Assembly: GCA_963747235.1 (NCBI GenBank)
Contig: CAVVEU010000013.1
Coordinates: forward strand, 96,001 to 160,000
Length of the DNA: 64,000 nucleotides
Origin: an uncultured Candidatus Rokubacteria bacterium
Lineage (GTDB): Bacteria; Methylomirabilota; Methylomirabilia; Rokubacteriales; CSP1-6
Direction of reading: 5' to 3'
The notes beneath the pieces are model-generated. The model did no database searches, was not told the DNA's origin, and saw only the letters and a list, made by a program, of their open reading frames with translations. Shown in pieces: positions 3,725-22,542 of the stretch. Both the position numbers and the translations under genes were made by a program. Every line of letters begins with the position of its first letter. Positions within the stretch are counted from its first letter, which is position 1.

Positions 3725-4720
3725 GCCGCTGCTGTCGGTGCGGAACCTGAAGACCTATTTCACGCAGGATGAGGGGACGGTGCGGGCGGTGGATGGGGTG
3801 AGCTTCGAGATGGCGCCGGGGGCGACGCTCGGGATCGTGGGGGAGAGCGGGTGCGGCAAGAGCATCACCGCCCGGTCGATCATGCGGATCGTGGATCGGC
3901 CGGGACGGATCGTCGAGGGGGAGATTCACTTCAGGCGGCCGTCCGGCGGCAACGGGGCGGGGCCGGTCGTGGACCTGGCGAAGCTCGAGCCCAACGGCGC
4001 CCTGATGCGCTCGATCCGGGGCGCGGAGATCGCGCTCATCTTCCAGGAGCCGATGTCCTCGTTCAGTCCCGTCCACACCGTCGGCAGCCAGATCATCGAG
4101 GCGATCCGGCTGCACCAGCCCCTCGGTCGGCAGGCGGCGCGCGAGCGGGCGATCGAGATGCTGCGGCGGGTGGGCGTGTCCTCGCCGGAGGAGCGGGTGG
4201 ATCAGCTCTCCAACCAGCTCAGCGGCGGCCTGCGCCAGCGCGCCATGATCGCGATGGCGCTGTCCTGCGAGCCGACCCTGCTGATCGCCGACGAGCCGAC
4301 GACGGCGCTCGACGTGACCACCCAGACCCAGATCCTCGAGCTGATGCGCCGGCTCCAGCAGGAAGACGGCATGGCGATCATGCTGATCACCCACGACCTG
4401 GGCGTGGTCGCGGAGATGGCCACCGACGTGGCGGTGATGTACCTGGGCCGGGTGGTCGAGCAGGCGCCGGTGGACGCGATCTTCCACGACCCGCGCCACC
4501 CGTACACGCGGGCGCTGCTGCGCTCGATTCCCCGCATCCGGTCGCGCACGCGGGAGCGGCTGACGCCGATCGCGGGCGCGGTGCCGCATCCCTACGACCG
4601 GCCGAGCGGCTGCCCCTTCCACCCGCGCTGCCCGGAGTTCATGGCCGGACGGTGCGATCGGGAGGCGCCGATCCTGCGCCCGGTGGGCGATCACCACGCG
4701 GTGAGCTGCTTCCTCTACGA

Positions 4721-4724
<4 letters not shown>
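3714..4724 (+). CDS. ABC transporter ATP-binding protein, DppD/OppD-like
   Basis: Walker A GESGCGKS, signature LSGG, Walker [14 protein letters not shown]-terminal GCPFHPRC..C. Confidence 0.95.
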
Positions 4725-5738
<1,014 letters not shown>

Positions 5739-6632: not shown

Positions 6633-7437
6633 ATGGAGTACAGAGTGGTACAGCACATGTGGATCGCTCCGCTCGTCGCCCTCGCGCTGGCCGAGATCGC
6701 GGTGATCGCGACCTCCGTGTACCTGCACCGGGGGCTCGCGCACCGCGCGCTCCGGCTGCATCCGGTCATGGATGGATGCTTCCGGGCCCTGCTCTGGCTG
6801 ACGACGGGCCAGAGCCGGCGGGAGTGGGTCGCCGTCCACCGCAAGCATCACGCCTTCACCGATCGAGAGGGCGATCCGCACAGCCCCCGGCTGTTCGGCT
6901 TCTGGAACATCCAGCTCTGGAACGTGTACTACTACGCGCGGGAAGCGCGCAACCCGGACACGCTGCGGACGTTCGCGCCCGATATCGCGGAGGACTGGCT
7001 GGATCGCGTGGTGTTCTCGCGGGGCCTGTAGCGGAGTCGGGATCGGGATCGTGTTTCTGTGCCTGGTGTTCGGACTCTGGGTCGGCCTCGCGGCCGGGCT
7101 GGTGCACGCGGTGCTGTACGTGTTCGTGCTGGCGCCGCTGATCAACGGTCTGGGGCACTGGCGCGGCGAGCAGAACTTCGGCAACACCGCCTACAACTCC
7201 CGGGCGCTCGCCTGGGTCACCGGCGGGGAGAGCCTGCACAACAACCATCACGCGCATCCGCGCGCGCCGAAGTTCAGCATGCGGCGGTTCGAGTTCGATC
7301 CATCGTGGGTGGTGATCCGTTGCCTCGCCGCGGTGGGACTGGTGGAGATCGTGGGGGCGCCCGTGCAGCTTGCCGAGCCTGGAGTCGTCGGACGAGCGAT
7401 CAGCGGGGGAAACGACAAAGGGGGCCGTGATGACTGA
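6633..7437 (+). CDS. Membrane acyl-CoA/fatty acid (delta-9-like) desaturase (1-nt frameshift at ~7029)
   Basis: Three His boxes HRGLAH, HRKHH and HNNHH, plus DPHSP, INGLGH and EFDPSW. Confidence 0.9.
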
Positions 7438-8008
7438 GCAGGTCGTGAGAATGGGCCTGATGTGGATTTTGGCCGGCCTCAGCGCCGGCTGGCTGGCCGA
7501 GACGCTGATCGTCCGGCGGGGCTACGGCCTGCTCGTGGACATGGGCCTGGGCGTCGGGGCGGGCCTCCTCGGCGGCGGCCTGTTCATGATGGGGTCGGAC
7601 CGTCCGGCCGGGACGCTGGCGATGTTTGTCGGCGCGTTCGTCCTCGCGTCCCTGGTGATCGTGGCGCAGCGGCTCTTCCTGCCGCGCACGCCCGGCGCGC
7701 GGGCGCGGAAAGCCCAGCTCCGCCTCACCGAGCTGCGGGGCACGGCGCCCGGCGAGAAGGACACGGTCTCTGGACTGCATGGGGCCGGCAATGGAGTGAT
7801 CGGCCGACCCGCCGCGCACGTGCTCATGCGCGTGGCGACGACCGGGATCTACCTGCTGCGCGGGGTGCCGCTGGAGCTGCAGCGCGCGGCGCGGGTGCGC
7901 GCGGTGAGCGACGGGACCACGCTTCACCAGGTGCTGCTCAAGGGTCTGGGCGAGTACGCGGCGGGAACCTGGACCCCTCAGCCGGGCAAGAAGCGTTCAG
8001 CCGCGTGA
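7430..8008 (+). CDS. GlsB/YeaQ/YmgE-like membrane domain fused to a C-terminal ribbon-helix-helix-like domain
   Basis: N-terminus WILAGLSAGWLA..GYGLLVDMGLGVGAGLLGG. C-terminus IYLLRGVPLELQRAARVRAVSDGTTLHQVLLKGL. Confidence 0.7.
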   Translation: MTEQVVRMGLMWILAGLSAGWLAETLIVRRGYGLLVDMGLGVGAGLLGGGLFMMGSDRPAGTLAMFVGAFVLASLVIVAQRLFLPRTPGARARKAQLRLTELRGTAPGEKDTVSGLHGAGNGVIGRPAAHVLMRVATTGIYLLRGVPLELQRAARVRAVSDGTTLHQVLLKGLGEYAAGTWTPQPGKKRSAA

Positions 8009-8027
8009 GCGGCGTGCGGCGGACGCG

Positions 8028-8276
8028 TCAGGGGCGGGGCTTGGTGGGCCAGTGGCGGTCGGCGACGCCGGGCTCGAGGAGCTCGGGAGTCACGACCGGG
8101 ACCGGCTGCAGCGGATCCTCGACCTCCACGCTCTCGTCCATCATGATCCAGGCGAGCATTCGTCCCTTCGCCGTTCGACGCGGTGATCCGAACCAGACGC
8201 GGCCCTCCGCGTCGAGCCCCACCAGGTGCCAGCCGTCGCCCTGCGTGATGACCTGGATCTGCCGGAGACCTTCCAT
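8028..8276 (-). CDS. Small hypothetical protein (82 aa, QI..LVGLDAEGRVW blade-like motif)
   Basis: GAGG before ATG 8276. Motif shared with 20273..20431. Confidence 0.6.
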   Translation of the reverse strand: MEGLRQIQVITQGDGWHLVGLDAEGRVWFGSPRRTAKGRMLAWIMMDESVEVEDPLQPVPVVTPELLEPGVADRHWPTKPRP

Positions 8277-8340
8277 GGTGAACCTCTTCCGCGGACTCGC
8301 GAGTCGAGCCCGACACGTCCACACTAGCACGAACGCGATA

Positions 8341-8369
8341 TTGACAAGGCGGGCGCGCGCCACTACGGT
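8341..8369 (+). promoter_or_regulatory. Sigma70-type promoter of dnaA, predicted leaderless
   Basis: TTGACA-17 nt-TACGGT-5 nt-ATG, with no SD. Confidence 0.65.
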
Positions 8370-8374
8370 CAGAC

Positions 8375-9679
8375 ATGCTTGAAGAGCTGTGGTCTCGGCT
8401 GCTCACCGCTCTCGAAGGTGAGGTTCCCGCCTCGGCGCTGGAGTCGTGGCTGCGCCCGTGCCGGCTCGTCGCGGTGGACGGCGACCGCCTGCGGGTCCTC
8501 GCGCCCAACAAGTACACGCGCGACTGGATCGGCCAGCACCACGTGGACACGATCGAGGCGGCCGCGCGCCGCTTGCTCGGCGTCAACACGCGGGTCTCCA
8601 TCGAGATGGACGCGGAGCCCGAGCCGCCGCCCGCGCTCGCGCGCGAGCGCGTTCCCGGCGCGCTGGACGAGCTGACGCCGCGCTACACGTTCGAGTCCTT
8701 CGTGGTCGGCAGCTCCAACCAGTTCGCGCAGGCGGCCTGCCAGGCGGTCGCCGAGCGGCCCGGGACGGCCTATAGCCCGCTGTTCCTCTACGGAGGGGTC
8801 GGCCTCGGCAAGACCCATCTCCTCCACGCGGTGGGGCACGAGATGGCGCGCCTCCACCCCACGCTGCGGCTGCTCTATCTCTCGTCGGAGCGCTTCACCA
8901 ACGAGCTCATCAATGCCATTCGCTACGACCGCACCGGCGAGTTCCGGGCGAAGTACCGGACGATCGATCTCCTGCTCATCGACGACATCCAGTTCATCGC
9001 GGGCAAGGAGCGGACGCAGGAGGAGTTCTTCCACACCTTCAACGATCTCTACGAGGGCCACAAGCAGATCGTGGTGTCTTCCGACTCCACGCCCAAGGAG
9101 ATTCCCGAGCTGGAGGAGCGGCTGCGCTCCCGCTTCGAGTGGGGCCTGGTCGCCGACATCCAGCCGCCCGACTTCGAGACCCGCGTGGCCATCCTGAAGA
9201 AGCGCGCCGAGATCGAGCGGGTCCAGTTGCCCGACGACGTGGCCTATCTGATGGCGAGCCGCATCAAGACCAACATTCGAGAGATCGAGGGGTCGTTCAC
9301 TCGGATGGCCGCGTTCTGCTCCCTGACCGGCCGCGAGATGAGCGTGGACGTCGCCCAGGAGGTCCTGTCCGAGCTCTGGGGCGCGGACGAGAAGATCATC
9401 ACGATCGAGCACATCCAGCGCACGGTGTCCGGGTTCTTCGGCCTCAAGCTGGCCGACATGCGCACCCGGACGCGGACCAAGGCGGTGTCCTTCCCGCGCC
9501 AGATCGCGATGTACTTCGCCCGCCAGCTCACGCACGCCTCGCTCACCGAGGTCGGGCGCGCCTTCGACAAGGACCACACCACCGTGCTCCACGCGGTGAC
9601 GAAGATCGAGGCGATGATCCGCGAAGACGCGAAGTTCAAGAAGACCGTCGATACGCTCGCCGAGAGCGTGGCGAGATAG
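8375..9679 (+). CDS. dnaA: Chromosomal replication initiator DnaA (orphan/second copy)
   Basis: Domain I (ESWLRP..APNKY..DWI), YTFESFVVGSSNQFA, Walker A GGVGLGKTHLL, LLIDDIQF, RLRSRFEWGL, domain IV PRQIAMY..DHTTVLHA. Confidence 0.97.
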   Translation: MLEELWSRLLTALEGEVPASALESWLRPCRLVAVDGDRLRVLAPNKYTRDWIGQHHVDTIEAAARRLLGVNTRVSIEMDAEPEPPPALARERVPGALDELTPRYTFESFVVGSSNQFAQAACQAVAERPGTAYSPLFLYGGVGLGKTHLLHAVGHEMARLHPTLRLLYLSSERFTNELINAIRYDRTGEFRAKYRTIDLLLIDDIQFIAGKERTQEEFFHTFNDLYEGHKQIVVSSDSTPKEIPELEERLRSRFEWGLVADIQPPDFETRVAILKKRAEIERVQLPDDVAYLMASRIKTNIREIEGSFTRMAAFCSLTGREMSVDVAQEVLSELWGADEKIITIEHIQRTVSGFFGLKLADMRTRTRTKAVSFPRQIAMYFARQLTHASLTEVGRAFDKDHTTVLHAVTKIEAMIREDAKFKKTVDTLAESVAR

Positions 9680-9783
9680 GGAGGCGATCCGCGTGGGCTC
9701 TCACCTGATCTCGGTCATGACCGCCGCGTGGCAGCGGCTCGTGGGGCCGCCCGCGCGTAACGGCGTCGCGCACGACCCGGAGC

Positions 9784-9830
9784 GCAGCGTCGCAGCGTAG
9801 GCCCAGCGTGCCCAGCGTGCACGCAGCGTG
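9784..9830 (+). repeat. Five tandem CAGCGT hexamers
   Basis: CAGCGT at 9785, 9793, 9804, 9813 and 9824. Confidence 0.7.
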
Positions 9831-10142
9831 AAGGTCCGCGAGCTCACCTGGCAATCCGGGGAGGCGGCGGTCTGGCCGGTCGGGTGGGTGGACTGGGCGG
9901 ATCCGGGCGGGGCCTCCGACGTGCCCGAGACGGGCGTGCTGGAGGGGCTCACGCGGCTCGGCAACCGCTTGCTGCTACGGATCAACGTCAACGGCAGCCG
10001 GCGCACCGCGGGGCTCGAGTGGGACGCGCCGCCGAGCGTGGACGACGTGGAGGCCGTGCTGCAGGCGAACCTCGGGGCCCAGATTCGCGCGGTCGGGCAG
10101 CTCGAGGTGCCGATCCGCGCCCGGCCGGGTCCGTCCGCGTGA
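9828..10142 (+). CDS. Hypothetical protein (104 aa, Trp-rich N-terminus)
   Basis: GTG start, protein-like composition, GTGA coupling to the next gene. Confidence 0.7.
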   Translation: MKVRELTWQSGEAAVWPVGWVDWADPGGASDVPETGVLEGLTRLGNRLLLRINVNGSRRTAGLEWDAPPSVDDVEAVLQANLGAQIRAVGQLEVPIRARPGPSA

Positions 10143-10417
10143 CGGCTCCGGTGACGGCGGTCACCTACACGACCGAGGACTTCGTGCGCCGCACCGTCGG
10201 GCGGATGTTGCGGGGCCGGTACCAGGGCGGGGTGGTCTGCTCCACCTGTCTCGTGGGGATGACGCTCGAGCGGCTGCACACCGGGTGGCGGAGGTCGGAG
10301 ATCGAGCACGCGATGGAGAAGGTGTTCAGCGCCCCCGGGGTGCTCGGCGGCGTGTCGAGCGGGCCCTGCGCGCGCTGCAAGCGCCCGAACCCGTGCATCG
10401 GCGAGCACGCCTCATGA
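10139..10417 (+). CDS. Small CxxC..CxxC..PC Zn-binding protein, paralog A
   Basis: [25 protein letters not shown]. Aligns with 21200..21463 and 20906..21172. Confidence 0.8.
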
Positions 10418-10430
10418 TGGGCCCCGCCTC

Positions 10431-10679
10431 ATGATGGGAGAGGAGATGGCCCGGTGCCACGCGGGGGCGATGCTGCGCGCCCGCCCGGGCTGCTACTACT
10501 GCGCGCGGTGTGTCACGCGGCGGCTGGGCCCCGCGGCGGTGTGGACGAAGCGGGACGCGCGCCGGGCGATCGCGGCGCTGTTCCTGGGGCCCATCGGGCT
10601 CACCGCCATCCTCCGTCACGGCCCGGATCCCTGCGGGGATTGCGGGATCGTCGGCGGAGCGCTCCTGGGCTCGGTGTAG
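10431..10679 (+). CDS. Small CxxC..CxxC Zn-binding protein, paralog D (divergent, start possibly 10446)
   Basis: [27 protein letters not shown], with the same motif order and similar spacing as paralogs A-C. Confidence 0.65.
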
Positions 10680-10684
10680 CCCGC

Positions 10685-13600
10685 TCAGCCGAGCACGACC
10701 CGGACGCGGCGCGTGGCGCCGTCGCCGATGAGGGGGATGCTGGCGGCCGGGGACGGGAGCGGGACGCCGTCGATCTCCATGGTCGAGATGCCGCGGGTCA
10801 CCCCGTGCGGGTTCTCGACCGTGATCTCGTAGCGCGAGGCGTGATAGCGGAACGCGATCTCGAAGCGCGGCCACGCGCGCGGGATGCACGGATCGAGATG
10901 GAGCGCCGCCCCGCGCAGGCGAAACCCGAGGAGCCACTCGAGGCCGGCCCGGTACATCCACCCCGCGGAGCCGGTGTACCAGGTCCACCCTCCGCGCCCG
11001 ACGTGCGGGTACTCCGCGTAGACGTCGGCGGCGGCCACGTACGGCTCTCCCTTGTAGCGGTGGACGCCCGCCCGGGTGCTCGTGCGGTTGATCGGGTTCA
11101 GGATGGAGAACAGCTCGTTGGCGCGGTCGCCGTCGCCCGAGCGCCGCGAAGGCCATCACGGTCCAGATGGCGGCGTGGGTGTACTGCCCGCCGTTCTCGC
11201 GGATGCCGGGCGGGTAGCCCTTGATGTACCCGGGCTCGAGCGATGAGTGATCGAACGGCGGGGTGAAGAGCAGGATCAGCTCCTGATCGCGCCGGACGAG
11301 ATACTCCTCCACCGCGGCCATCGCGCGCGCCGCGCGCGCGGGCTCGGCGGCCCCCGAGAGGACCCCCCAGGACTGGGCGATCGAATCGATGCGGCACTCG
11401 GGGTTCACGATGGAGCCGAGCGGGGTGCCGTCGTCGAAGTAGGCGCGGCGATACCAGTCGCCATCCCAGGCGTGCTGCTCGAGCGCCGTCTTGAGGGCGC
11501 GGACGTGGGCCCGCCACGTCTCGGCGCGCGCGCCCTCGCCGCGGGCGTCGGCCAGGCGCGCGAACTCCCAGAGGGTCGTGTGCAGGAACCAGCCGAGCCA
11601 GACGCTCTCGCCGCGCCCCTCGGGCCCCACCCGGTTCATGCCGTCGTTCCAGTCGCCGGTGCCCATCAGGGGCAGCCCGTGAGCGCCGACCGCGAGGCTG
11701 CGGTCGAGCGCACGCGCGCAGTGCTCGAAGAGCGTGCCGTGCTCGGCGGAGACGGTGGGCTCGAAGTACGCGTCCTCCTGACCGGAGGGGATCGGCGGGC
11801 CTTCCAGGAACGGAACGCGCTCGTCCAGGAGCGGCGTATCCCCGGTGATCTCCAGGTAGTGCGTGACCGCGTAGGGTAGCCAGAGCGAATCGTCGGAGAT
11901 CCGGGTGCGCACGCCCTTGCCGGAGGGCGGATGCCACCAGTGCTGGACGTCGCCCTCGATGAACTGCCGGGCGGCGGCCCGGAGGAGATGCTCGCGCGCC
12001 ACCTCGCGCTTCGCGACCACGAGCGCCATCACGTCCTGGAGCTGGTCGCGGAAGCCGTAGGCGCCGCCGGCCTGATAGAAGGCGGAGCGGGCCCAGACCC
12101 GGCAGGCGAGCGTCTGGTAGAGCAGCCACCGGTTCAGCATCAGGTCCATGGACCGGTCCGGCGTCTTCACCTGGATGGCGCCGAGCGTGTCGTCCCACCG
12201 GGTCGTGACGTCCTTCAGGGTGACGATCGACGTCCGCGGCGCGATGGCGGACGATGAGCGCTCGCGCGGCCTCCACGGTGTCGCCCTGGCCGAGGAGGAA
12301 GACGATCTCCTCCCGGCCGCCCGGGGCCAGCTCGATCACGGCCTGGAGCGCCGCGCACGGATCGAGCCCGGCGCCGACCCGCCCGGACGGAGGCGTGCCG
12401 CGCTCCAGCATCGCGGGATGATCGAGCGTGCCGTTGCGGCCGATGACCTCCGCGCGATCGGCCGTCCACGCGGTCTGGCGGCCCCCGAGATCGGCGAACG
12501 CGACGCACCCGGCGAAGTCGGTGTTCCAGGCGTTGCGGGCCAGGAGCGCCCCGGTGTCCGCGTCGATCTCGGTGACGATGGACGGGGCGTTCGCGCTGCG
12601 CGAGGCGCCCAGCACCCACTCGACGTAGGCGGTGACCGAGAGCCGGCGCGGCTTGCCGGAGCGGTTCTCGATCGTCAGCCGCGAGATCTTGACCGGGTCC
12701 TCGGACGGGACGAACTGCAGGAGCTCGAGCGCGATGCCGTGGGAGGCGTGCTCGAAGCGGCTGTAGCCCTGTCCGTGCCGGGCGATGTAGGGGGACGCGT
12801 CCTCCCGGATCGGCAGGAGGGTGGGGCCCCACAGCGCGCCGGTCTCCTCGTCGCGGACGTAGAACGTCTCGCCCGGCGGGTCGCCGACCGCGTCGTTGGA
12901 CCACGGCGTGAGCTGGTTCTCGCGGCTGTTGAGCGCCCACGTGTACCCGGCCCCGGATTCGGAGACCTGGAAGCCGAAGCGGGGGTTGGCGATGACGTTG
13001 ACCCACGGCGCGGGCGCCCACTGCCCCTCGCCGAGCACGGTGACGTACTCGCGGCCCCCGTCCACGAAGCCCCCGATGCCGTTGAAGAACTCGGATTCGA
13101 AGCGCGGGGGTGGCGCGTGCGCGGCGGCCGCGGCCCGGGCCGGTCGCGGCGCGGGAAGGGCCGCGGCGTCGGGCGCCGACTCGGCGCGCGCGAGCTGCTC
13201 CGCGAGCGTGCCGTGGCGGCTCAGGAGCACGGCCCGGGCCGCCGACTGGAGTGCCGCGTGGTCCGTGGACGAGAGGAGCTCCTTCCGGAGGATGAAGACC
13301 CGACCCTGCGTCTCGCTGCGCTCCGGCCGGGGCGCCGACTGGCTCGTCCGCACGAGGGCCTCGAGCGAGGTCTGGAACTCCTGGACGTAGGAGTGCGCCT
13401 TCTCGTTCAGGATGACGAGATCCACGGCGAGCCCCTTCATGCGCCAGTACTCGTGGGCGCGGAGGAGCTGGCGGACGATGCCGCGATCCTCCGGCTCGTC
13501 GATGCGCACGAGGACGATCGGGAGGTCGCCGGAGATCTGGTGGGCCCAGAGGGTCGACGGGCCCGCCGTGTTCCGTCGCAGCACGTCCGGCGCGGAGCGC

Positions 13601-16600
13601 ATCGCGGGGTCGGAGTAGAGGATCCGGCTCGCCAGGTCCTGGAACAGATGGGCCTCGTGCGGGTCGATGCCCAGGTGGTGGAGCTGCACCTGCGCCTGGG
13701 TCCAGGCCAGGGTGACGGTGCGCTCGAACGTCGCGGGGTCGCGATACTTGTCGGCCAGGGCCACCGCGGCCTCGCGGGAGGCGGCGACGAGCGTGGAGAA
13801 GATGAGGCGGGCGCACTCGCCCGGGGCGAGCCGGATCCGGCGCCGCAGGCTGAAGATCGGATCGAGCACCGAGCCCGCGGTGTTCGACAGGGGCCGGCCG
13901 TCGATGACCGACATCGGCGTGCGGATCGTGCGGCCGCGGCCCAGGAAGCGGGCCCGGTCCGTCTCGTACTGGGCGCCGCCCGCGGGCTGGCCTTCCACCA
14001 CGACGGTGTGGGCCGCCCACACCGGGGTCTCCGCCGGCGCGCGGAGCCGGCGGGTGGCCAGGAGCGCGCCGAGATCGGCGAGCAGCTCGGTCTGGACGAA
14101 CAGGTTGGAGAAGGCGGGGTGGGCGGAGTCGGCCGCCGGCGCGGCGAGCTGGAGCTCGGCGTAGGAGGTGAGCTCGATCTCTCGCACCCGGTCTCCCAGG
14201 TTCGTGACCGAGACGCGCCGGATCTCGGCGTCGTCCTCGGGCGAGACGATGACCTCGAGCGCGGTCGCGATCGTGCCGTCCAGGCGATAGAACTCCGCGC
14301 GGTCCTCCGAGAACGTGGCACGGTAGACGGTCGGCTCGACGCCGGTGGGCTGGTAGGCGGCCGACCAGACCGCGCCGGTCTCGACGTCGCGCAGGAACAC
14401 GTACGTCCCCCACGGATCCCGCGTCACGTCCTCGCGCCATCGCGTGACGCCGAGCCCGGCGCACCGGCTGTAGCCCGATCCCGCGGTGGTCAGCATCACC
14501 GCGTAGCGCCCGTTGGAGAGAAGATGCGTCCGGGGGGCGGGCCCGTGGGGCGTGGTGAAGCGGCGGAAGACGGGCTCCACGAACTCGCGGACGTGCGCCG
14601 GCACGTCCACTTCCTCGAGCCGGGGGCGGGCGACCGCGACGTCGCGGGGCGCGCGCTCCTGCAGGAGCAGGTCCGTGGCCTGGATGATGGGCTCGGCGTG
14701 GAACCGCGCGCGCATGATCCCGTCGTGGAGCACGTTCCCCAGGGCGATGAGCGTCATGCCCTGGTGGTGGGCCATGTAGGCGCGCACGATCGCCACCGTC
14801 GCGCCGTCCGGCACCCGCGACGGGGTGTAGTCGAGGGCCTCGTAGAAGCCGTACGGCCCGCGCGCGCCCGACCGCGGCGAGGGCGGAGAAGTTCCGCGCC
14901 GCCGCGACCGGGTCGATCATCGCGGCGAGCGCGGTCGCGTAGGGGGCCACGACCAGGTCCTCGCCCAGGCCGCGCTCGAGACCCAGGCCCGGCACGCCGA
15001 AGTTCGAGTACTGGAAGGTGAGGTCCAGATCGCGGACGTTATAGGCCGATTCGGAGACGCCCCAGGGCACGCCGTTGTCGGCGCCGTAGCTCATCTGGCG
15101 CTGGACCACGAGCCGGCACGTGTCCTCGAGGAGACTGCCCGCCGGGGCGTCCATCACGAGCTCGGGCATCAGGTACTCGAACATCGAGCCCGACCAGGAC
15201 ACGAGGACCGAGCCGAGCCCGACCGGGGTCATCTGGCGGCCGAGGTGGAACCAGTGCGAGACGGGGACGTCGCCCTTGGCGATGGCGATGAAGCTCGCGA
15301 GCCGCGCTTCCGAGGCGAGGAGGTCGTAGGCGCTGCCGTCGAGGCTGCCGTCGGAGACGCGATAGCCGATCGAGAAGATCTTGCGGGTCGGGTCGAAGAG
15401 GAAGCCGAACTGCATGGCCTCGAAGAGCTCGGTGGTCGCCCGGGCGACGGCCAGCAGGCGGCCGGCGAGCGATTGAGCGGCCGCGGAGGAGCGCGCCAGG
15501 CCTCCGATGAGCGCGTCGATGCGCGCGATCGGGCCCGCCGACTGTTCGGCGCCCGCGCGGAGGGCGGCGTCGCGAGCGGCGGTGAGCTCGTCGATCGCGA
15601 CGCGGCAGCGCTCGGGCAGATCGGCCGGGCTGGGCGGCGAGGCGAAGAGCCGGCCGAGCGCGCTCGCGACCTCGGGGGGCGCGCCCGCGATGTCGGCCCA
15701 GGGCATCAGGGTCTCGACGTCGCGCGCGTGGCTGGCGACGGTGGCGCGCGCCGCCTGGGCCCAGACCAGGACGCCGGCGCCCCCGCCGCCGTCGCCGCTG
15801 GTCGTGAGCACGCGCGCGATGTCCACCAGGGTGTCGGCGTACCCCGCGAGCCGTCGGACGCGGGCGGACCGTCTCCGCCGGGCTCCCCGCGTCGTCGCGA
15901 AGCGCCGCGCCCAGGGTGTCGCGGGCCTCGGCGAGCTGGCGGACGGTCACGGTCTGGCTGCGGTGACTATCCGCGAGCGCGGTGGCGGCCTCCCCGACGA
16001 GATGGAGGGCGTCGTCGATGCCCGCGACCAGGTCCCGGTGCGGAAGCGGATCGTGGACCGCGCCGCGACACGCGCTGCCGAGGGCGAGGAGATGCGCGGC
16101 GAGGTTACCGCTGTCCACGGTGGAGACGTAGCGGGGCTCCAGCGGGCGCAGCCCGGTCGTGTCGTACCAGTTGTAGAAGTGGCCGCGGAAGCGCTCGAGG
16201 CGGCGCATCGTCGCCAGGGTCGCCTCGAGGCGCTCCACCGTGTCGAGGAGGCCCAGCCAGCCGAAGTCCCGGGCCGAGATCACCGCCAGCAGATAGAGCC
16301 CGATGTTGGTGGGAGACGTGCGGTGCGCCAGGACGGGCCGGGGATCCTCCTGGAAGTTGTCGGGCGGCAGGAAGGTGTCGTCGTGCCCGACGAAGGACTC
16401 GAAGAAGCGCCAGGTGCGGCGCGCGGTCGAGCGAAGGACGACGGAGTCCTCGGGGGAGAGCCGCTGCTGGGGCGACGGCACCGGCGGGCGGCTGACCCAT
16501 CGGGCCACCGCGGGGGAGAGGCTCCAGAGCAGGAGGAAGGGCGCGGCCACCGCGAGGCTGCTCGGCCGCAGCCAGACCACGAGCGCGCCGGCGGCCGCGG

Positions 16601-19467
16601 CGACGACGAGCGCCCCGCCCATGCGCCGGTACGCGCCGGTGATGTCCCGGGAGAGGTCCGACTTGGTCTGCGCGGCGGTGGTCCATTCCAGCAGCCGGCG
16701 GCGGGTCAGGTACAGGCGCACGAGCGTGCGTCCGATCGCGTCGCCCATGAGCCAGGCCTGGTGCGCGAGGAAGGTGATGGCGAGCGCGATCTGAGACGCC
16801 GCGATCGTGAAGGTCCGCCCGACGCTCCGCAAGTGGGTCCGCTTCGAGATGCCCGACCGCTTGGGGATGATCTCGTCGAACGTCGGGAAGGAGGGATGGG
16901 AGCGCGATGGTGGCGAGGACGAACGCGGTCCACACCAGCGGGAGACCGTGAGGGAGCAGCCAGCCCACGATGAGGGTGAGCCCGGCGGCCGGCGCCGACA
17001 AGGTCCGGCGGAGGTTGTCGGTGATCTTCCACAGGCCGACCGGCGGGATCCAGGTCGGCCGCGCCCCCGCGCGGGTGTCGCCCCGGATCATCCAGGGGAG
17101 GAGCTGCCAGTCTCCGCGCGCCCAGCGGTACTGGCGTCCGGCCGCGACCTCGTAGTCGGTGGGGAACTCCTCGAAGAGCTCGATGTCGGTGACGAGTCCG
17201 GCTCGCGCGAAGATCCCCTCGAAGAGATCGTGGCTCAGGAGGGAGTTCTCGGGAACGCGATCCTTGAGCGCGGCGGTGAACGCGGCCACGTCGTAGATGC
17301 CCTTCCCGGTGTACGAGCCCTCGCCGAAGAGGTCCTGGTAGACGTCGGAGGTCGCGGTGGCGTAGGGATCGATCCCGGCGGGCCCGGCGAAGATCCGCTG
17401 GAAGAGCGAGCGGTCACGATCCGAGGGGATCGTGGGCGTGATCCGGGGCTGCAGGATCGCGTAGCCGTCCACCACGCGCCCGGCGCGGGCGTCGAAGACC
17501 GGCCGGTTCAGCGGATGGGCCATCGTGCCGACGAGGCGATTGACCGCGCCGCGCGGCAGGCGCGTGTCGGCGTCGAGGGTGATGACGTAGCGGACTCCGG
17601 TGGGTACCGCGGGCGCCGGGCCCCGCGGCGTCTCGAACGCCGGTCCTCCGGTGCCGGTCAGGAGCTGGTTGAGCTGGTCGAGCTTTCCGCGCTTGCGCTC
17701 CCAGCCCATCCACGTGCCCTCGCGCGCGTTCCAGGCTCGACGGCGATGGAGCAGGAGGAAGCGCTCGCCGCCGGGAAGGGCCGGGCCGCTGCGCGCGTTG
17801 AGGCGGGCGATGCCGTCCGCGGCCAGCGCGAGGAGCCGATCGTCCTCCGGCGTGCGCTCGGTGGACGCGTCCCTCCAGTCCGAGAGCAGGACGAAGTGGA
17901 CGTGGCCGTCCGGGTTGGCGAGATAGTGGATCTCCAGGCGGTTGATGTGCTCCTCGATCTCGTCGGCGCCGGTCAGGAGCGTGGGCACGACCACGAGGGT
18001 GCGCATGCCCGCGGGCACGCCCTCGGCCAGCTCGAGACGCGGGAGCGGGGTCGGACCGATCAGGTCCATGACCGCGCGATTGATGAGGGCGAGCGCCAGA
18101 TCGGAGGCCGGGATCACCGCGAGGAGTCCGAGCAGGGCCAGGGCGCCGGGGCTCATGCCGGCGGTGTGCCCGGCCAGGAGCGGGAGGGCCAGGAGGAGGC
18201 CGGTCACGGTGGCGATGGTCGTCAGGTAGCCCGGCGTCGCGCCGGACAGGAACACGCGGAGGAACCGCTGGCCCGGTGGCGCGCGGTAGCCGGTCTCGGC
18301 TTCCAGCACGGTGCGCCCCTGGGCGAGCAGGTAGTAGCCGGGATCGGTCGAGCGTGCCGCGGGCGCCGCGTCGCTGCGCGGCACGTCCGCGATCGCGCGC
18401 CGGGCGTGGGCCATCACCAGCCGGGTGACGTCGAGCTCGGACCGCCGGGAGCCGCGCGCGAGGTCCTCGATCACGTGACGGTACTGATCGCGGGTGGCGA
18501 AGTCCATCGCGCGGAAGGTGCGGTCGGCGCGGAGCAGGTCGTCCACCAGGCTGACGCTCTCGAAGAAGTCGGCCCAGTCGAACGTGGCCATCATCCGCAT
18601 GCTCGTGATCACGTTGCGGACGGTCACGTTCAGGGCGGCCTGGTTCTGGTGCTCGAGCTGCACGAGCGCGTCGGCCGAGGTGCCGAGCGCGGTGAGCTGC
18701 TCGTCGAGCCACCGCAGCGCGGGGGTGGACTCGGGATCCTGCTCGCGCAGCCGCTGCACGAGGTTCACCATGAAGGCGCGCGACAGGCGCGCGGTCTCGA
18801 TTCGCTGGAAGGCGAGCGGGCGCCGCGTCCGTCCGCCGAGTCCGAGCAGCTCGTCGGCCAGCGCGTCGGCCCCGAGTCGCGCGGCCCGCCCATTCACGAT
18901 GCGCTCGGCCAGGCGCCGGAGGTTCTCCACGAGCACGAGGCGAAGCGCGATCGGGATGGCCCAGAGCTCGCCGATGGTCAGGGGCTGCACGCGCTGGAAC
19001 CGGCGCACGAAGCGCTGGAGCGTCTCCGGCTCCAGGCGGCTGTCGGTGTGGGCGATGAACTCCCAGGCCAGGCCGAGCACGCGGGGATACCCCTGCAGCG
19101 GCTCCTCCGCGAGCTTGGGGAGCTGGCGGTAGAACCCGCGCGGGAGGTCCTCGCGAACCTGCCGCACCACCTCGTCCGCGACGTGGTAGTTGTCGACGAA
19201 CCATTCCGCGGCCGGCGTGATGGCCCCTTCCTCCCGGATCACCGCCGCGATCTCGCGATAGCACTGCAGGAGGACGCGTCCGCTGTCGCGCACGCGGGGC
19301 GAGAGGAGGCGCCCGGAGGTGCCGCCGGCCAGGACCGGGCGGCTCGCGACGCGCTCCGCGAGCTCCTCCAGGCGCTCGGGGCTCAGGAGCTCGGTGCGGA
19401 TCGGCTCCTGGGACTCGCGGGAGAGGGGAGACGGGACGGCGGGCGACCGGAAGCCTCGGAGATGCAT
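10685..19467 (-). CDS. ndvB: Cyclic beta-1,2-glucan synthase (GT84 + cyclisation domain + GH94 phosphorylase), about 2900 aa, broken by at least 5 indels
   Basis: [89 protein letters not shown] and WYTGSAGW in collinear order across ORF fragments. Confidence 0.93.
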
Positions 19468-19561
19468 GCTGCGTTCAGCCTCCCGAGGTCCACATCTGCG
19501 ATTGAATGTACCATGATATAAGCTACATAACCGACATAGGGGATACCGTGATCGTTATCGC

Positions 19562-19773
19562 TTGACAGTACGGAGATCGCCCTGTAATGTGACGGGCGGT
19601 GCTGATTCACCCGGCTTTCGGTTGCAGCGAGCAGACGAATACGATTCGCGACTAACGCCGCGCGGGTATCAAGCCGCTCGGCGTTTTTGTTTGTCCTCCA
19701 CTCCTGGAGGGCGCCCTCGCCATGGTGGCGAGGTTTCACCGAGGCGAAAGCCTCAGAATAAGAGGTCGGTTCA
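19562..19773 (+). promoter_or_regulatory. csp promoter and long (~175 nt) 5' UTR
   Basis: TTGACA(19562)-17 nt-TAATGT, and GAGG SD before ATG 19774. Long leaders are typical of cspA-family mRNAs. Confidence 0.55.
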
Positions 19774-19974
19774 ATGGCACAGGGCACGGTCAAGTGGTTC
19801 AACGATGCGAAGGGTTACGGCTTCATTACCCAGGAGGGTGGCGAGGACGTCTTCGTGCATTTCAACGCCATTCAGGCGCAGGGCTTCAAGAGCCTGGCCG
19901 AGGGCGACAAGGTCGAGTTCGAAGTGACCAAGGGCCCCAAGGGGCTCCAGGCCGCGAACGTTCGGAAGGCCTGA
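19774..19974 (+). CDS. cspA: Cold-shock protein (CspA family)
   Basis: [15 protein letters not shown] (RNP1), DVFVHF (RNP2), 66 aa. Confidence 0.97.
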
Positions 19975-19995
19975 CGAAAACCCCGCGTCAAACGG

Positions 19996-20030
19996 AAGGC
20001 CGGGTCCCCTTCGGGGGGCCCGGCCTTTTT
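19996..20030 (+). terminator. Rho-independent terminator of csp
   Basis: 14-bp stem (one G-U pair), C(UUCG)G tetraloop, ending in a T run. Confidence 0.9.
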
Positions 20031-20044
20031 CATGTCCGCCCGGT

Positions 20045-20078
20045 CCAGAACGTAGATCTAGCCAGAACGTAAATCTAG
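20045..20078. repeat. 17-bp tandem duplication CCAGAACGTA(G/A)ATCTAG x2
   Basis: Directly visible, 1 mismatch. Confidence 0.8.
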
Positions 20079-20087
20079 CAGGTCGGT

Positions 20088-20252
20088 CTAGCGGGCGCTC
20101 TCGTCACGGAGCTGCCACCCGAGCCCGACGAAGCTCAGCACGACGCCGAGCCAGAAGGCCACCTCGCGGGTCGAGGTGCCGTCGCCGAGGTGGCCGATGA
20201 CGACGAAGGCGAGCCCGACCGCGAGGAGTACGTGCTTCGGCTTGATCGCCAT
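20088..20252 (-). CDS. Small 2-TM membrane protein (54 aa)
   Basis: MAIKPKHVLLAVGLAFVVIG..VAFWLGVVLSFVGLGW, two hydrophobic segments. Confidence 0.65.
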   Translation of the reverse strand: MAIKPKHVLLAVGLAFVVIGHLGDGTSTREVAFWLGVVLSFVGLGWQLRDESAR

Positions 20253-20272
20253 GACGCGGCCCCGGGCGGCCC

Positions 20273-20431
20273 CTAGGCTTCCCGATCGTTGGCCAGGCGG
20301 CCCCACTTCTTCTTCGCGAAGTTGAAGAGCCACACGCTGCCGGAGGAATCCAGCGCGTACAGCAGGGTCGGCGACAGGGGGGCTACCGTCGTCGCGATCT
20401 GGACGAACTTGGGCTGCCCTCGGGGGTCCAT
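20273..20431 (-). CDS. Small hypothetical protein (52 aa, FVQIA..LYALDSSGSVW blade-like motif)
   Basis: Strong SD GGAGGAG before ATG 20431. Motif shared with 8028..8276. Confidence 0.7.
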   Translation of the reverse strand: MDPRGQPKFVQIATTVAPLSPTLLYALDSSGSVWLFNFAKKKWGRLANDREA

Positions 20432-20495
20432 GGGGTCTCCTCCGTGCGTAGCGAGAGCGGGCGCGGCAAGGTCGTCGAAGGGAGAGGCAACCGGA

Positions 20496-20552
20496 TTGCC
20501 GGGCACCATGTATGTATGATATAACTTAAATAACAATAAGAACGTATATTCG
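20496..20552. promoter_or_regulatory. AT-rich divergent promoter region
   Basis: TTGCCG-18-TATAAC with extended TG, and an ~40-nt strongly A/T-rich tract in a very GC-rich window. Confidence 0.55.
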
Positions 20553-20614
20553 CGGCCCGCGCATCCCGAAAGACGCCGGTACGCCGGGATACGTCTGGGG
20601 ATATGGAGATCGCA

Positions 20615-20905
20615 ATGTTCGAGGACAGAGCCAGGGTCCTGCTCATTCTCCCTCAAGACGTTCTCGACCGGGCGCGCGTGTTCGCGGGCGAAGCGATGAC
20701 GAAGCTGAAGGGCCCCGTGAGCCTGCAGATGGTGCTGCGCGCGCTCATCGACCAGGGGCTCCGGCGCGATCGCGACCGGGCCCTCCTGACCAACATCGAG
20801 GTGCAGATGCGGGCGGTCCGGGAAGTCCGGAGCCGCGGCCGCCGGCCCGCCGTGATGGCGCGCGCCACGCGGGCGGGTGCCCGGGCGAGCGGGCGAAGGA
20901 GCTGA
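20615..20905 (+). CDS. Ribbon-helix-helix (CopG/Arc-like) DNA-binding protein with a basic tail
   Basis: RVLLILPQDVLDRARVFA..VSLQMVLRALIDQGL pattern, GGAG SD. Confidence 0.65.
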   Translation: MFEDRARVLLILPQDVLDRARVFAGEAMTKLKGPVSLQMVLRALIDQGLRRDRDRALLTNIEVQMRAVREVRSRGRRPAVMARATRAGARASGRRS

Positions 20906-21172
20906 ATGGCCGCGACGATCTTCACGGTGGGAGACTTCATCCGGCGGGTCGTGGACAGCCTCCTCCGTGGTGATTGCCGGGGCAAGTTCCTCTGCGCGCG
21001 GTGCCTGGTCAAGCTGACCAAGGGCCACCTGGACCGGAGCTACACGACCCGCGAGGTGGTGGAGGTGATGGAGGAGATCTTCGTGGCGCCCGCGCCGTTG
21101 ACGCACGCGCCGGCCTCCACCTGCGCCGCCTGCGCGCGGAAGAAGGTCCCGTGCCTCGCGGCGGCGGCGTGA
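20906..21172 (+). CDS. Small CxxC..CxxC..PC Zn-binding protein, paralog C
   Basis: FTVGDFIRR..LLRG..CARCLV..CAAC..PCL. Starts immediately after the RHH stop codon. Confidence 0.8.
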   Translation: MAATIFTVGDFIRRVVDSLLRGDCRGKFLCARCLVKLTKGHLDRSYTTREVVEVMEEIFVAPAPLTHAPASTCAACARKKVPCLAAAA

Positions 21173-21199
21173 CGGCCGGTCAGTGGCGATAGAGGCCGA

Positions 21200-21463
21200 T
21201 CAGAGGTAGGGCGAGCCGAGGCAGGGCTTGACGTTCCGGCAGGCGGCGCACCGGAACGCGGCCCGGGATTCCATGGGGACGCCGGGTGTCGCGTAGACCC
21301 GGTCCATCGCCCGGGTGATCTCGGCCGGGCGCCATCCCGGGTGCAGGCTCTCGAGGGTCATCGCGACGAGGCAGGGCAGGCAGACGAAGGTGTTCCGGTA
21401 CTTGACGCTGCGGAGAATGCGCTGCAGCGAGTGCCGGACGAACTCTTCGGTGGTGTAGGTCAT
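21200..21463 (-). CDS. Small CxxC..CxxC..PC Zn-binding protein, paralog B
   Basis: MTYTTEEFVR..CLPCLVAMTLESLHPGW..CAAC..PCLG. Closest to paralog A. Confidence 0.82.
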   Translation of the reverse strand: MTYTTEEFVRHSLQRILRSVKYRNTFVCLPCLVAMTLESLHPGWRPAEITRAMDRVYATPGVPMESRAAFRCAACRNVKPCLGSPYL

Positions 21464-21548
21464 CCGGACAAAGTATGCGCCACCGCGCGGCGGTGAAGCA
21501 AGCGTCAGGCGAGCGAGGGGGACGATCATGGGGGGCAGAAATCGAGTG

Positions 21549-22022
21549 ATGGCGCGGCGGCACTTCATGGGGAACCGGACCTACAAGGGGCTGACCTATA
21601 CCCTGGAGCTGGAGGCCATCGAGGAGAACGTGTTCAAGGCGCACGCGAGGCTGTCGCCCTCCGGCCCGGAGGTCTCCATCGTGCACGAGACCTCGGACAC
21701 CGCGCTCAAGCAGGCCGAGGCCGGGATCCGGCAGGTGATCGAGCAGCGCGAGGCGGGCACCGTCGTGCGCGAGCGTCTGCCCGAGCGCACGTACGGAGAC
21801 GTCAAGTACACGATCATCGTGCGGACCGAAGCGACGCGCGTGGTGGCCGAGCTCTACTTCATCCGCGCCAACGCGCAGCCGCGCCGCCCGGGCCCCGGCA
21901 CCTTCTTCGCCCTCTTCGAGGGCAAGACCAAGCAGGGCGCCATCGGACAGGCGGAGCGGGGACTCAAGGCCAAGCTCGACAAGGAGCGTACGGGCACCAC
22001 GGCGGCGCGCTCCAGCCGGTAG
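21549..22022 (+). CDS. Hypothetical protein with two internal ~65-aa repeats (HicB-N-like beta-beta-beta-alpha, tentative)
   Basis: RTYKGLTYTL..TSDTALKQAEAGIRQVIE versus RTYGDVKYTI..TKQGAIGQAERGLKAKLD. Confidence 0.7.
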   Translation: MARRHFMGNRTYKGLTYTLELEAIEENVFKAHARLSPSGPEVSIVHETSDTALKQAEAGIRQVIEQREAGTVVRERLPERTYGDVKYTIIVRTEATRVVAELYFIRANAQPRRPGPGTFFALFEGKTKQGAIGQAERGLKAKLDKERTGTTAARSSR

Positions 22023-22024
22023 CA

Positions 22025-22312
22025 ATGCCTGAGCCGGGCCTGGGCCTGAGTGCCTTGTGGGAGGAGCGCGACTACAAGGCGTGCGGAGCCTCGATGGAGT
22101 GCCGGGGACGCTTCATCCTCGGGAAGCTGTTCGACCGTGACACGCGGATGCTCAAGGCCGCGTGGCTCGCCGCCTTCGGCACGCGGGTGCTCGGCCCGCC
22201 CGAGATCCGGACCGACGAGATCACGAAGGCCCAGTGGGGGATGATCCTGTCCCACATGGGCGCCAGCCAGGACGAGATCGCCGACGTCCAGACCCGGATG
22301 GGTCGAATCTGA
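22025..22312 (+). CDS. Hypothetical protein (95 aa)
   Basis: Starts 2 nt after the upstream stop, with GC3-rich codon usage. Confidence 0.6.
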   Translation: MPEPGLGLSALWEERDYKACGASMECRGRFILGKLFDRDTRMLKAAWLAAFGTRVLGPPEIRTDEITKAQWGMILSHMGASQDEIADVQTRMGRI

Positions 22313-22542
22313 CGACTCCTTTGAACCTCTGGCCCCTGGCCCGCGACCTACGGGCAGAAGGTCAGGGGCGGCGAGGCCGCCGGAAAGGAGACGGTCTCTC
22401 GGGATGGCGGGACAACATCGTGGCCGTCCCGGCCGGCACTCCGGGCCCCAGGCCGGGCTTGAACGTGGGGTTGGGCACCATCGACGGGCGCAGGGTGAAC
22501 CCCAAGGCCAACGTGCTCCGGTAGCCTCTCGCATCACTTGGC

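Follow-up and report, generated by a model that had tools for sequence, protein, structure and literature searches.

Does the DNA around a giant glucan synthase gene (cgs) in an uncultured Candidatus Rokubacteria bacterium hold a module of small-protein genes that has been copied to both sides of it, or has a single gene neighbourhood come to look like two? The locus lies in a stretch of 64,000 nucleotides (hereafter the window; G000:C13:96001-160000). To the left of cgs are a blade-like miniprotein gene (blade1), an extra dnaA, a conserved gene of no named family (hyp) and two genes for cysteine-bearing miniproteins (Zn1 and Zn2), with a gene for a membrane/RHH-like fusion protein next door, and to the right, beyond a cold-shock gene (csp), are a second blade-like gene (blade2), an RHH-like gene (RHH-A) and two further Zn genes (Zn3 and Zn4), as listed in Table 1. 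An earlier note on this DNA had described a three-part module of blade, DNA-binding protein and Zn protein, occurring twice and possibly centred on DnaA. Our analysis favours instead, at a probability of about 0.5, one lineage-specific neighbourhood of small-protein genes that was split and not duplicated, for which we propose an origin and a regulatory mode of working.

The open reading frames (ORFs) named in that note are all present in the ORF list at the places given for them. Genome G000 comprises 5.57 Mb in 42 contigs, is 88% complete and has a G+C content (GC) of approximately 72%. We compared it with 20 other genomes of the genus (G001-G020, with loci numbered L and a figure), and the ratio of non-synonymous to synonymous substitution rates (dN/dS) was calculated pairwise against 2-6 orthologs per gene. 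Every small gene has orthologs in same-genus genomes, at amino acid identities of 70-100%, and the dN/dS values of the small genes are 0.08-0.58 at dS 0.2-1.0, the comparison genes dnaA and csp giving 0.14-0.23 and 0 respectively. These ratios and orthologs show that the named ORFs are genes, and not frames left open by chance at a GC of 72%. The named relatives of the small proteins in databases belong to Methylomirabilota or Rokuibacteriota. No meaningful match was found in the Pfam, NCBIfam, PADLOC or PHROG libraries, with 0 PADLOC matches for 10 proteins at E ≤ 0.1 and none in PHROG at E ≤ 0.03; integrase and transposase genes were not searched for systematically.

The relationship of the four Zn genes was assessed by phmmer over the 77,083 six-frame ORFs of the genome, which linked Zn1, Zn3, Zn4 and a fifth copy on contig C4 with E values of 1e-8 to 1e-21 (from Zn1, these were 1e-21 for Zn4, 1e-13 for Zn3 and 5e-12 for the C4 copy). 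This search found no further member and also missed Zn2, which a profile-profile comparison with hhalign matched to the Zn1/3/4 profile at 95.4% (E 2e-8 over 77 columns), against 0.1-0.3% for six pairs of unrelated controls. The sequence comparisons thus confirm that all four are one paralog family, as the earlier note had held. Four of the five copies fall within 11.3 kb of the 5.57-Mb genome, for which simple arithmetic gives a chance of approximately 1e-7 under random placement, and tandem duplication is the ordinary cause of such clustering. A tree of the family resolved three clades, namely Zn2, clade B (Zn1, with Zn4 nested beside it as clade B′, support 99/100) and clade A (Zn3 and the stand-alone copies of the C4 type), and since each of these spans several species the paralogs are older than the species. 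The two sides of cgs differ in their complement, with clade B and Zn2 on the left and clades A and B′ on the right, and they differ in gene order and orientation too. Separately, in G020 (L036 9851-10000) the N-terminal third of Zn1 runs in frame into the C-terminal half of Zn2, which looks like a deletion fusing two paralogs.

Besides G000, the Zn family was found in 17/20 genomes of the genus, and none of 20 genomes drawn from 13 further genera of the order had it; broader sampling found it in 2/48 genera of the taxonomic family (13/14 genomes of genus g1 and three genomes of g25). As RHH-A was likewise found only in two families of the phylum, the lineage-specific character claimed for these genes holds. 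Database searching returned 314 Zn-family members at E ≤ 1e-3 among 571 candidates, and none of the 120 members listed carries a Pfam domain.

Gene order across the genus bears on how the two sides of cgs are to be read. G013, G014 and G020 have the same layout as the window. In G005, a more distant species, the genes run csp-cgs-RHH-A-hyp-Zn3-Zn1-Zn2 in one direction and all on one side of cgs; G019 has cgs-RHH-A-hyp-Zn1-Zn2, with dnaA and blade1 across cgs, G018 has dnaA-Zn4-RHH-A-Zn3-Zn1-Zn2-hyp, and G009 and G010 have Zn3-Zn1-Zn2-RHH-A. G001 carries two clusters, each with its own RHH-A, and in the close relatives G011 and G015 dnaA-csp-blade2-RHH-A-Zn3 are contiguous, without the 10-kb hyp-Zn1-Zn2-cgs block, so that neither cgs nor the left Zn genes stand between dnaA and csp. 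Two associations are constant through these arrangements: Zn1 and Zn2 are adjacent in all eight clusters in which Zn2 was found, and RHH-A lies ≤ 1 kb from a Zn gene in 13/13 clusters of the genus. G011, G013, G014, G015 and G020 all keep blade1 and dnaA as a divergent pair, and in the window, G014 and G020 dnaA has hyp-Zn1-Zn2 directly behind it. Blade2-like genes also have as neighbours a hyp paralog (G005:C3) and a Zn fragment (G019:C70). The genes are low in copy number and syntenic in relatives, contrary to the high-copy scatter or lack of synteny that the earlier note had named as refuting its view.

Members of the same families also lie together outside the genus. Of 20 RHH-A loci from other genera, 11 have within 4 kb a gene for the membrane domain of the fusion protein (8), a gene for its RHH-like domain, RHH-B (2), or one of the blade2-like kind (1), the partner often being divergent from RHH-A, and no Zn gene occurs in any of the 20. 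Around blade2-like genes, 24 loci were inspected, and within 1.5 kb a gene for the membrane domain or for RHH-B was present in 8 of them and RHH-A in 4.

Table 1. Features of the window around cgs, in order of position
Feature	Coordinates	Strand	Remarks
Fusion protein	7430..8008	+	192 amino acids; N-terminal membrane domain and C-terminal RHH-like domain (RHH-B, ~122-192)
blade1	8028..8276	-	82 amino acids; ~50-residue blade-like domain and Pro-rich tail
DnaA paralog	8375..9679	+	434 amino acids; extra full-length copy
hyp	9828..10142	+	104 amino acids; conserved, travels with Zn genes; stop overlaps the Zn1 GTG start (GTGA)
Zn1	10139..10417	+	Clade B; likely start GTG 10139, overlapping the hyp stop
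Zn2	10431..10679	+	Divergent member; both CxxC pairs kept, fifth Cys missing; orthologs 61-78% identical; dN/dS 0.24-0.38
cgs-like giant glucan synthase	10685..19467 (gene region to 19548)	-	GH94 domains; six frame segments
Cold-shock protein (csp)	19774..19974	+	Pfam CSD, E 4e-30
Small membrane-like ORF	20088..20252	-	Downstream of blade2; uncertain gene
blade2	20273..20431	-	52 amino acids
AT-rich promoter/operator-like tract	20507..20551		Upstream of RHH-A
RHH-A	20603..20905	+	RHH-like small protein; likely start is the invariant Met at 20615
Zn3	20906..21172	+	Clade A; first base directly after the RHH-A stop
Zn4	21200..21463	-	Clade B′; convergent with Zn3; orthologs in G014, G015, G020, G018; dN/dS 0.14-0.27
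Two conserved unnamed genes	21528..22312	+	164 and 95 amino acids; follow the Zn/RHH cluster in relatives

To characterize the Zn proteins, we aligned 84 family members, in which five cysteines (C30, C33, C73, C76 and C83) are invariant in the layout CxxC ... CxxC-x5/6-C, and modelled Zn3 with AlphaFold2 (AF2). The model (predicted local distance difference test score, pLDDT, 88.9; predicted template modelling score, pTM, 0.77) has three helices and then a β-hairpin (H8-21, a bridge at 29-30, H31-41, H48-60, E66-71 and E81-85), which corresponds to the winged-helix topology H1-(S1)-H2-H3-S2-wing-S3. Comparison of the model with 48,161 chains by VIA-align gave 50 listed rows, all of the winged-helix type, with Z scores of 8.2-6.3, and the top weak rows from Foldseek are winged-helix DNA-binding domains as well. 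The family is thus predicted to be a winged helix with five invariant cysteines. In its three predicted helices and β-hairpin wing it resembles the Fur/Zur DNA-binding domain, MarR/MecI, the linker-histone H1/H5 globular domain and the cullin WHB domain. However, it shows no sequence similarity to known winged-helix domains (4-16% identity) and has no Pfam family, the proteins of approximately 88 amino acids stand alone without a dimerization or sensor domain, and the invariant cysteines join the start of helix 2 to the wing region. FeoC-type proteins are small winged-helix proteins in which a Cys-rich wing binds an Fe-S cluster; the Zn family shares with them the small stand-alone winged helix and the wing cysteines, but two of its five cysteines sit at helix 2, and no FeoC-type family was named in the Pfam scan (E ≤ 1) or among the structural rows.

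RHH-A has 2341 database relatives at E ≤ 1e-3 among 8000 candidates scored; the best 120 are 70-99% identical to it, and a Pfam domain is absent from all 120 listed. Among 151 genomes of the phylum, a tally that takes in two unpublished genomes, it was found in 65, at 1-4 copies per genome (59/93 in family f1 and 5/7 in f11), and in none of the other families sampled. The AF2 model of the monomer (pLDDT 77) has an extended N-terminus, two helices (H18-35 and H41-50) and a long third helix (H58-96). RHH-A aligns with RHH-B in the same register over 22 columns. It has no library match and, unlike RHH antitoxins and repressors, carries the long third helix; its RHH identity is plausible but unproven. 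Complex prediction with two RHH-A chains and Zn3 gave a best score of 0.28 against a mark of 0.32, without controls, and speaks neither for nor against binding.

The tract upstream of RHH-A is strikingly poor in GC for this genome. Among 39 homologs examined, 38 have upstream a tract in which the lowest 30-nt GC is ≤ 27%, and many of these tracts contain a TTGAC box, a TATAA-like box approximately 17 nt later and further ATATA repeats, in the manner of a sigma-70-like promoter/operator. In the whole genome, a 30-nt window with GC ≤ 20% occurs in just 10 stretches, of which the tract at 20507-20551 is one. Its -35 box is degenerate, the promoter-like character being recognized by comparison of the 39 loci, and a promoter consensus scan of 7000-22500 returned 0 sites. 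Inspection by eye showed no obvious motif shared between it and the nine remaining AT-rich stretches. Three of the ten most AT-rich stretches cluster at C33:400576-402143, near a contig end, which may be a foreign or mobile segment. At four loci of other genera (L067, L068, L069 and L082), a conserved GC-rich stretch of approximately 50 nt with a hairpin-like inverted repeat lies between the RHH-A tract and the start codon and may be a structured 5′ leader.

The fusion protein has orthologs in G013 (86% identical) and G014 (73%), with dN/dS 0.23-0.30, and as a whole gave no Pfam match at E ≤ 1. Its C-terminal domain, RHH-B, resembles RHH antitoxins and repressors (VapB26, FitA-like and CopG/RHH_1) in a strand-helix-helix sequence pattern and in weak matches: the RHH-B profile (A10) matched VapB26 at E 0.043, and among ten members FitA-like_RHH was found in two (best E 0.0021) and RHH_1 in one (E 0.023), all below the curated cut-offs. 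In contrast with such antitoxins, RHH-B is fused here to a membrane domain and no toxin partner was recognized. In other genera, each half of the fusion is encoded by a small gene of its own, adjoining RHH-A or a blade2-like gene. RHH-B and RHH-A profiles scored only 0.1% and 1.3% against each other, and at sequence level the two are not demonstrably related. The idea that a DNA-binding member recurs on both sides of cgs therefore fails, as the left side offers DnaA, the right side an RHH-like protein, and the domain of the adjoining fusion has no demonstrable tie to the latter. The wider view that these are small DNA-binding proteins fared better in part, being favoured by the predicted winged helix of the Zn family and the weak antitoxin matches of RHH-B, whereas the RHH label of RHH-A found no support in the libraries.

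The blade-like miniproteins were examined by profile searching. blade1 is single-copy in 18 of the 21 genus genomes (dN/dS 0.24-0.47), and a HMMER search of 1.84 billion representatives with its profile returned 47 proteins at E ≤ 1e-3, of which 35 are ≤ 124 amino acids long, mostly stand-alone miniproteins, and 12 are longer. Eleven of these 12 contain 3-7 matched stretches, with full-sequence E values of 2.6e-8 to 2.3e-4, and the ten long matches that were scanned comprise seven RCC1-repeat proteins and three with Reg_prop repeats only. The blade-like label therefore holds for blade1 at the level of sequence. Searches of PDB sequences with its profile gave chance-level rows only, an Atlas search found its own cluster and unnamed clusters only, and a word-indexed search for longer forms returned one 201-amino-acid protein with no propeller, whereas the full HMMER scan did find propellers. 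For blade2, the tie to propellers consists of a Kelch_4 match at E 0.024 and the link to blade1. It is conserved at 88-90% identity in G013, G014, G015 and G020 and 84% in G011 (dN/dS 0.08-0.20); strong matches occur in only 6/21 genus genomes, and the profile finds relatives in 46/151 genomes and 17/48 genera of the family, a tally that includes two flagged unpublished genomes, the loci of which were left out. The two blade proteins had been presented as one family, and this stands with a qualification: narrow profiles scored 7% and a half-enriched profile, from which four tail-only matches or matches starting mid-protein had been removed, scored 18%, but with both profiles enriched (A9, 13 orthologs and 18 of the 35 miniproteins; A8, 28 members) the comparison reached 88.6% (E 2.6e-6, 42 columns; controls 0.05-0.2%). 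They are probable remote homologs, visible only with profiles enriched from other genomes.

With RCC1 and Reg_prop propellers blade1 shares a profile that matches 3-7 consecutive repeats and a length, approximately 50 residues, that fits one blade; unlike those propellers, blade1 and blade2 are one-unit stand-alone genes, conserved and under purifying selection. In published experiments, blades cut out singly from WD40 propellers failed to fold (eLife 2019, PMC6805158), and oligomeric propellers have been built from fragments (PMC6805158; Front Mol Biosci 2022, PMC9218822). We raise as a speculative and on balance unlikely proposal that blade1, blade2 and some 35 metagenomic relative clusters are natural single blades of the RCC1/Reg_prop lineage which would need to assemble into homo- or hetero-oligomeric rings in order to fold, a living single-blade stage of propeller amplification; with genes beside those of the Cys5 winged-helix and small RHH proteins, which may control them or act with them, they would belong to a small-protein system specific to Methylomirabilota.

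The window DnaA has domains I, III and IV (Pfam DnaA_N PF11638 at 2e-12, Bac_DnaA PF00308 at 2e-70 and Bac_DnaA_C PF08299 at 1.5e-25) and is one of three full-length copies in the genome (C2:76102, C24:822746 and 8375-9679 of the window), 76-78% identical to each other and all with conserved P-loop/ATPase and domain IV motifs. Of the three, the C2 copy alone has dnaN and recF behind it; the window copy departs from the usual DnaA in being one of three and in having no dnaN neighbour. Among 121 genomes of the phylum, four of them unpublished, this genome alone gave three dnaA matches, and titles and the openings of abstracts contained no work on DnaA paralogs of Rokubacteria. Although the earlier note had tentatively given DnaA a central part in a regulatory network, of the 18 genus genomes with a blade1 gene only 7 have it next to this dnaA copy and 11 have it away from dnaA, and the link of the small-protein families to DnaA is weak. 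The hyp protein has orthologs at six further loci (54-72% identical; dN/dS 0.23-0.56), and searches of Pfam, NCBIfam, PADLOC, PHROGs, PDB sequences and Atlas gave nothing usable for it. Armadillo-repeat rows for it in the PDB sequence search were discarded as sums over repeats at chance level.

A cyclic β-1,2-glucan synthase (Cgs) is defined as a giant membrane protein in which a glycosyltransferase part is joined to a GH94 part at the C-terminus, and the sequence of the window cgs has this architecture, with GH94 supersandwich (E 1e-167) and catalytic (E 7e-99) matches and a weak GT2 match in the N-part. Relative to the intact 2964-amino-acid ORF of G014 it contains five frame changes, near 16866, 15855, 14869, 12243 and 11137. 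Since an ABC-type ATPase gene of the window (3851-5738) also switches frame, at about 5028, and cgs of G013 is likewise broken, assembly error is as likely a cause as decay. A fatty-acid desaturase is split into two ORFs (6633-7031 and 7051-7437), which, like the frame switch of the ATPase, points to gene decay or to indel errors of the assembly. The only cgs of G011 (C352) and of G015 (C342) is 59% identical to that of the window and located elsewhere, and a cgs-like C-terminus of approximately 50% identity lies near blade1 in G001:C269; there are therefore at least two cgs lineages in the genus. We found no literature joining Rokubacteria with glucan synthase. The csp protein is 100% identical in G013, G014, G015, G020 and G011. 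The small ORF downstream of blade2 has a match only in G009 (71%), where it is divergent from RHH-A, and none in the closest relatives. The two unnamed genes beyond Zn4 are 75-98% identical in G009, G010, G011, G013, G014, G015 and G020, without a Pfam, NCBIfam, PADLOC or PHROG match, and are followed by a DUF4129 membrane protein and then a MoxR-like ATPase.

Traces of expression were sought by placing contigs from four sequencing runs on 19700-21600. csp is covered in all four and is by far the most covered part, and in most of the RNA runs the small covered shares (0.10-0.17) are accounted for by csp. One run recorded as a metatranscriptome gave a 366-nt contig with 6 differences that spans the RHH-A/Zn3 junction (20711-21076), and most of 20265-21600 is covered in two runs whose type is uncertain; stretches without cover are uninformative. 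The junction contig is only a weak hint of expression, as contigs cannot show a single transcript and RNA libraries may contain DNA.

Taken together, the neighbourhood would have arisen as follows. The Zn and hyp genes, judging by synteny, probably once formed one string transcribed behind RHH-A and beside cgs; in the lineage of the window hyp-Zn1-Zn2 would have moved to the far side of cgs, downstream of the extra dnaA, and RHH-A-Zn3, with Zn4, would have stayed in place. Such a split would give the false look of a repeat. In its working, RHH-A may bind the AT-rich operator and control itself and the genes behind it, and the Cys-bearing proteins, predicted winged helices, may be small nucleic-acid-binding regulators or modulators whose metal or thiol site would be structural or would sense metal or redox state; the blade miniproteins may act as oligomers. 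Solely through their position near csp, the desaturase gene and cgs, these genes may be tied to adaptation to cold or osmotic change, and the tie to stress or dormancy raised in the earlier note has the same basis. Several points weigh against this proposal. The direction, split or fusion, is tentative, being read from unrooted synteny, and the genomes are related and not independent, so that the raw co-location counts overstate the case. Regulation by the small-protein families, DNA binding, metal binding and oligomerization are all putative. The RHH label of RHH-A is unsupported by Pfam, PDB sequences or Foldseek, which gave no match below E 0.8 for the monomer model. For the Zn3 model, Foldseek gave no match at E ≤ 0.001 (best E 0.43), VIA-align Z scores of 6-8 are common, the tool rating 7-8 as a typical best score, and helix 3, the usual recognition helix, is acidic in sequence. 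In nine loci of other species of the genus blade1 is near none of the other families, and the frame changes in cgs mean that exact ends of small genes may be off.

The duplication of a three-part module to both sides of cgs and csp, in a network centred on DnaA, would account for the presence of blade-like and Zn-family genes on either side, for the blade1-dnaA pair kept in five relatives and for the position of hyp-Zn1-Zn2 behind dnaA in three genomes. We consider it highly improbable, however, as its DNA-binding members are unrelated, its Zn genes are old paralogs that differ in subfamily by side and are not paired in the tree as left/right sisters, its blades are related at profile level only, other species keep all their Zn genes on one side and blade1 stands away from dnaA in 11/18 genomes. 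At the other extreme, the genes may have no functional link and be unrelated conserved lineage-specific small genes piling up in a variable, rearrangement-prone stretch. A gene order that differs in almost every species fits this, as do the solitary state of blade1 in most species, C4-type Zn copies alone in 12 loci (L045-L048, L050-L051 and singles) and the absence of interaction evidence; it is nevertheless an unlikely explanation, since in several genera these families are again found side by side, though variously ordered, and Zn1-Zn2 adjacency (8/8) and RHH-A-Zn proximity (13/13) have outlasted the rearrangements.

Toxin-antitoxin-like or defence-like pairs, with the RHH proteins as antitoxins and the Zn, blade or membrane miniproteins as toxic partners, are called to mind by the weak likeness of RHH-B to the RHH domains of VapB26 and FitA, by tight or overlapping gene pairs, by the 1-4 copies and patchy distribution of RHH-A and by the fact that small membrane proteins are often partners. 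Yet no partner matches a toxin or defence family (PADLOC, 0 for 10 proteins; none in Pfam or NCBIfam), RHH-A is highly conserved and lacks a Zn gene in 20/20 loci of other genera, and all genes have dN/dS < 0.6 in a stable chromosomal context, so that we regard such pairs as improbable. A role of the Cys5 miniproteins in redox or metal-cluster chemistry in place of nucleic-acid binding, whether as thiol switches or as carriers of Fe-S or Zn, with the winged helix a mere scaffold, would agree with the five invariant cysteines, the acidic helix 3 of Zn3 and the name 'ferredoxin' given to a few members by source annotations, but the Pfam Fer2 match is at chance level (E 0.047), Zn3 is basic overall with a Lys/Arg-rich cysteine-bearing loop, and the fold matches are winged helices that bind nucleic acid or protein; this too we regard as improbable. 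The split neighbourhood thus stays our preferred reading, and the picture that survives, confirmed in part, is of lineage-specific small-protein families, unnamed in Pfam, NCBIfam, PADLOC and PHROG and with regulator-like folds, that travel together, along with single-blade-like miniproteins.

Paralogy and rearrangement can mimic repeated modules in a single window, a caution that comparison with relatives resolves. What this locus offers is four small-protein families of an uncultured soil phylum that are unnamed in four libraries, a Cys-stapled winged helix, an RHH-like, a single-blade-like and the hyp family. The RHH-like family stands out by its more than 2000 database relatives and by a promoter whose AT-richness is striking against a genomic GC of 72%, and the blade miniproteins bear on the origin of β-propellers from single blades. 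For a phylum without genetics, the repeated co-location of these families provides cheap and concrete targets for first experiments.

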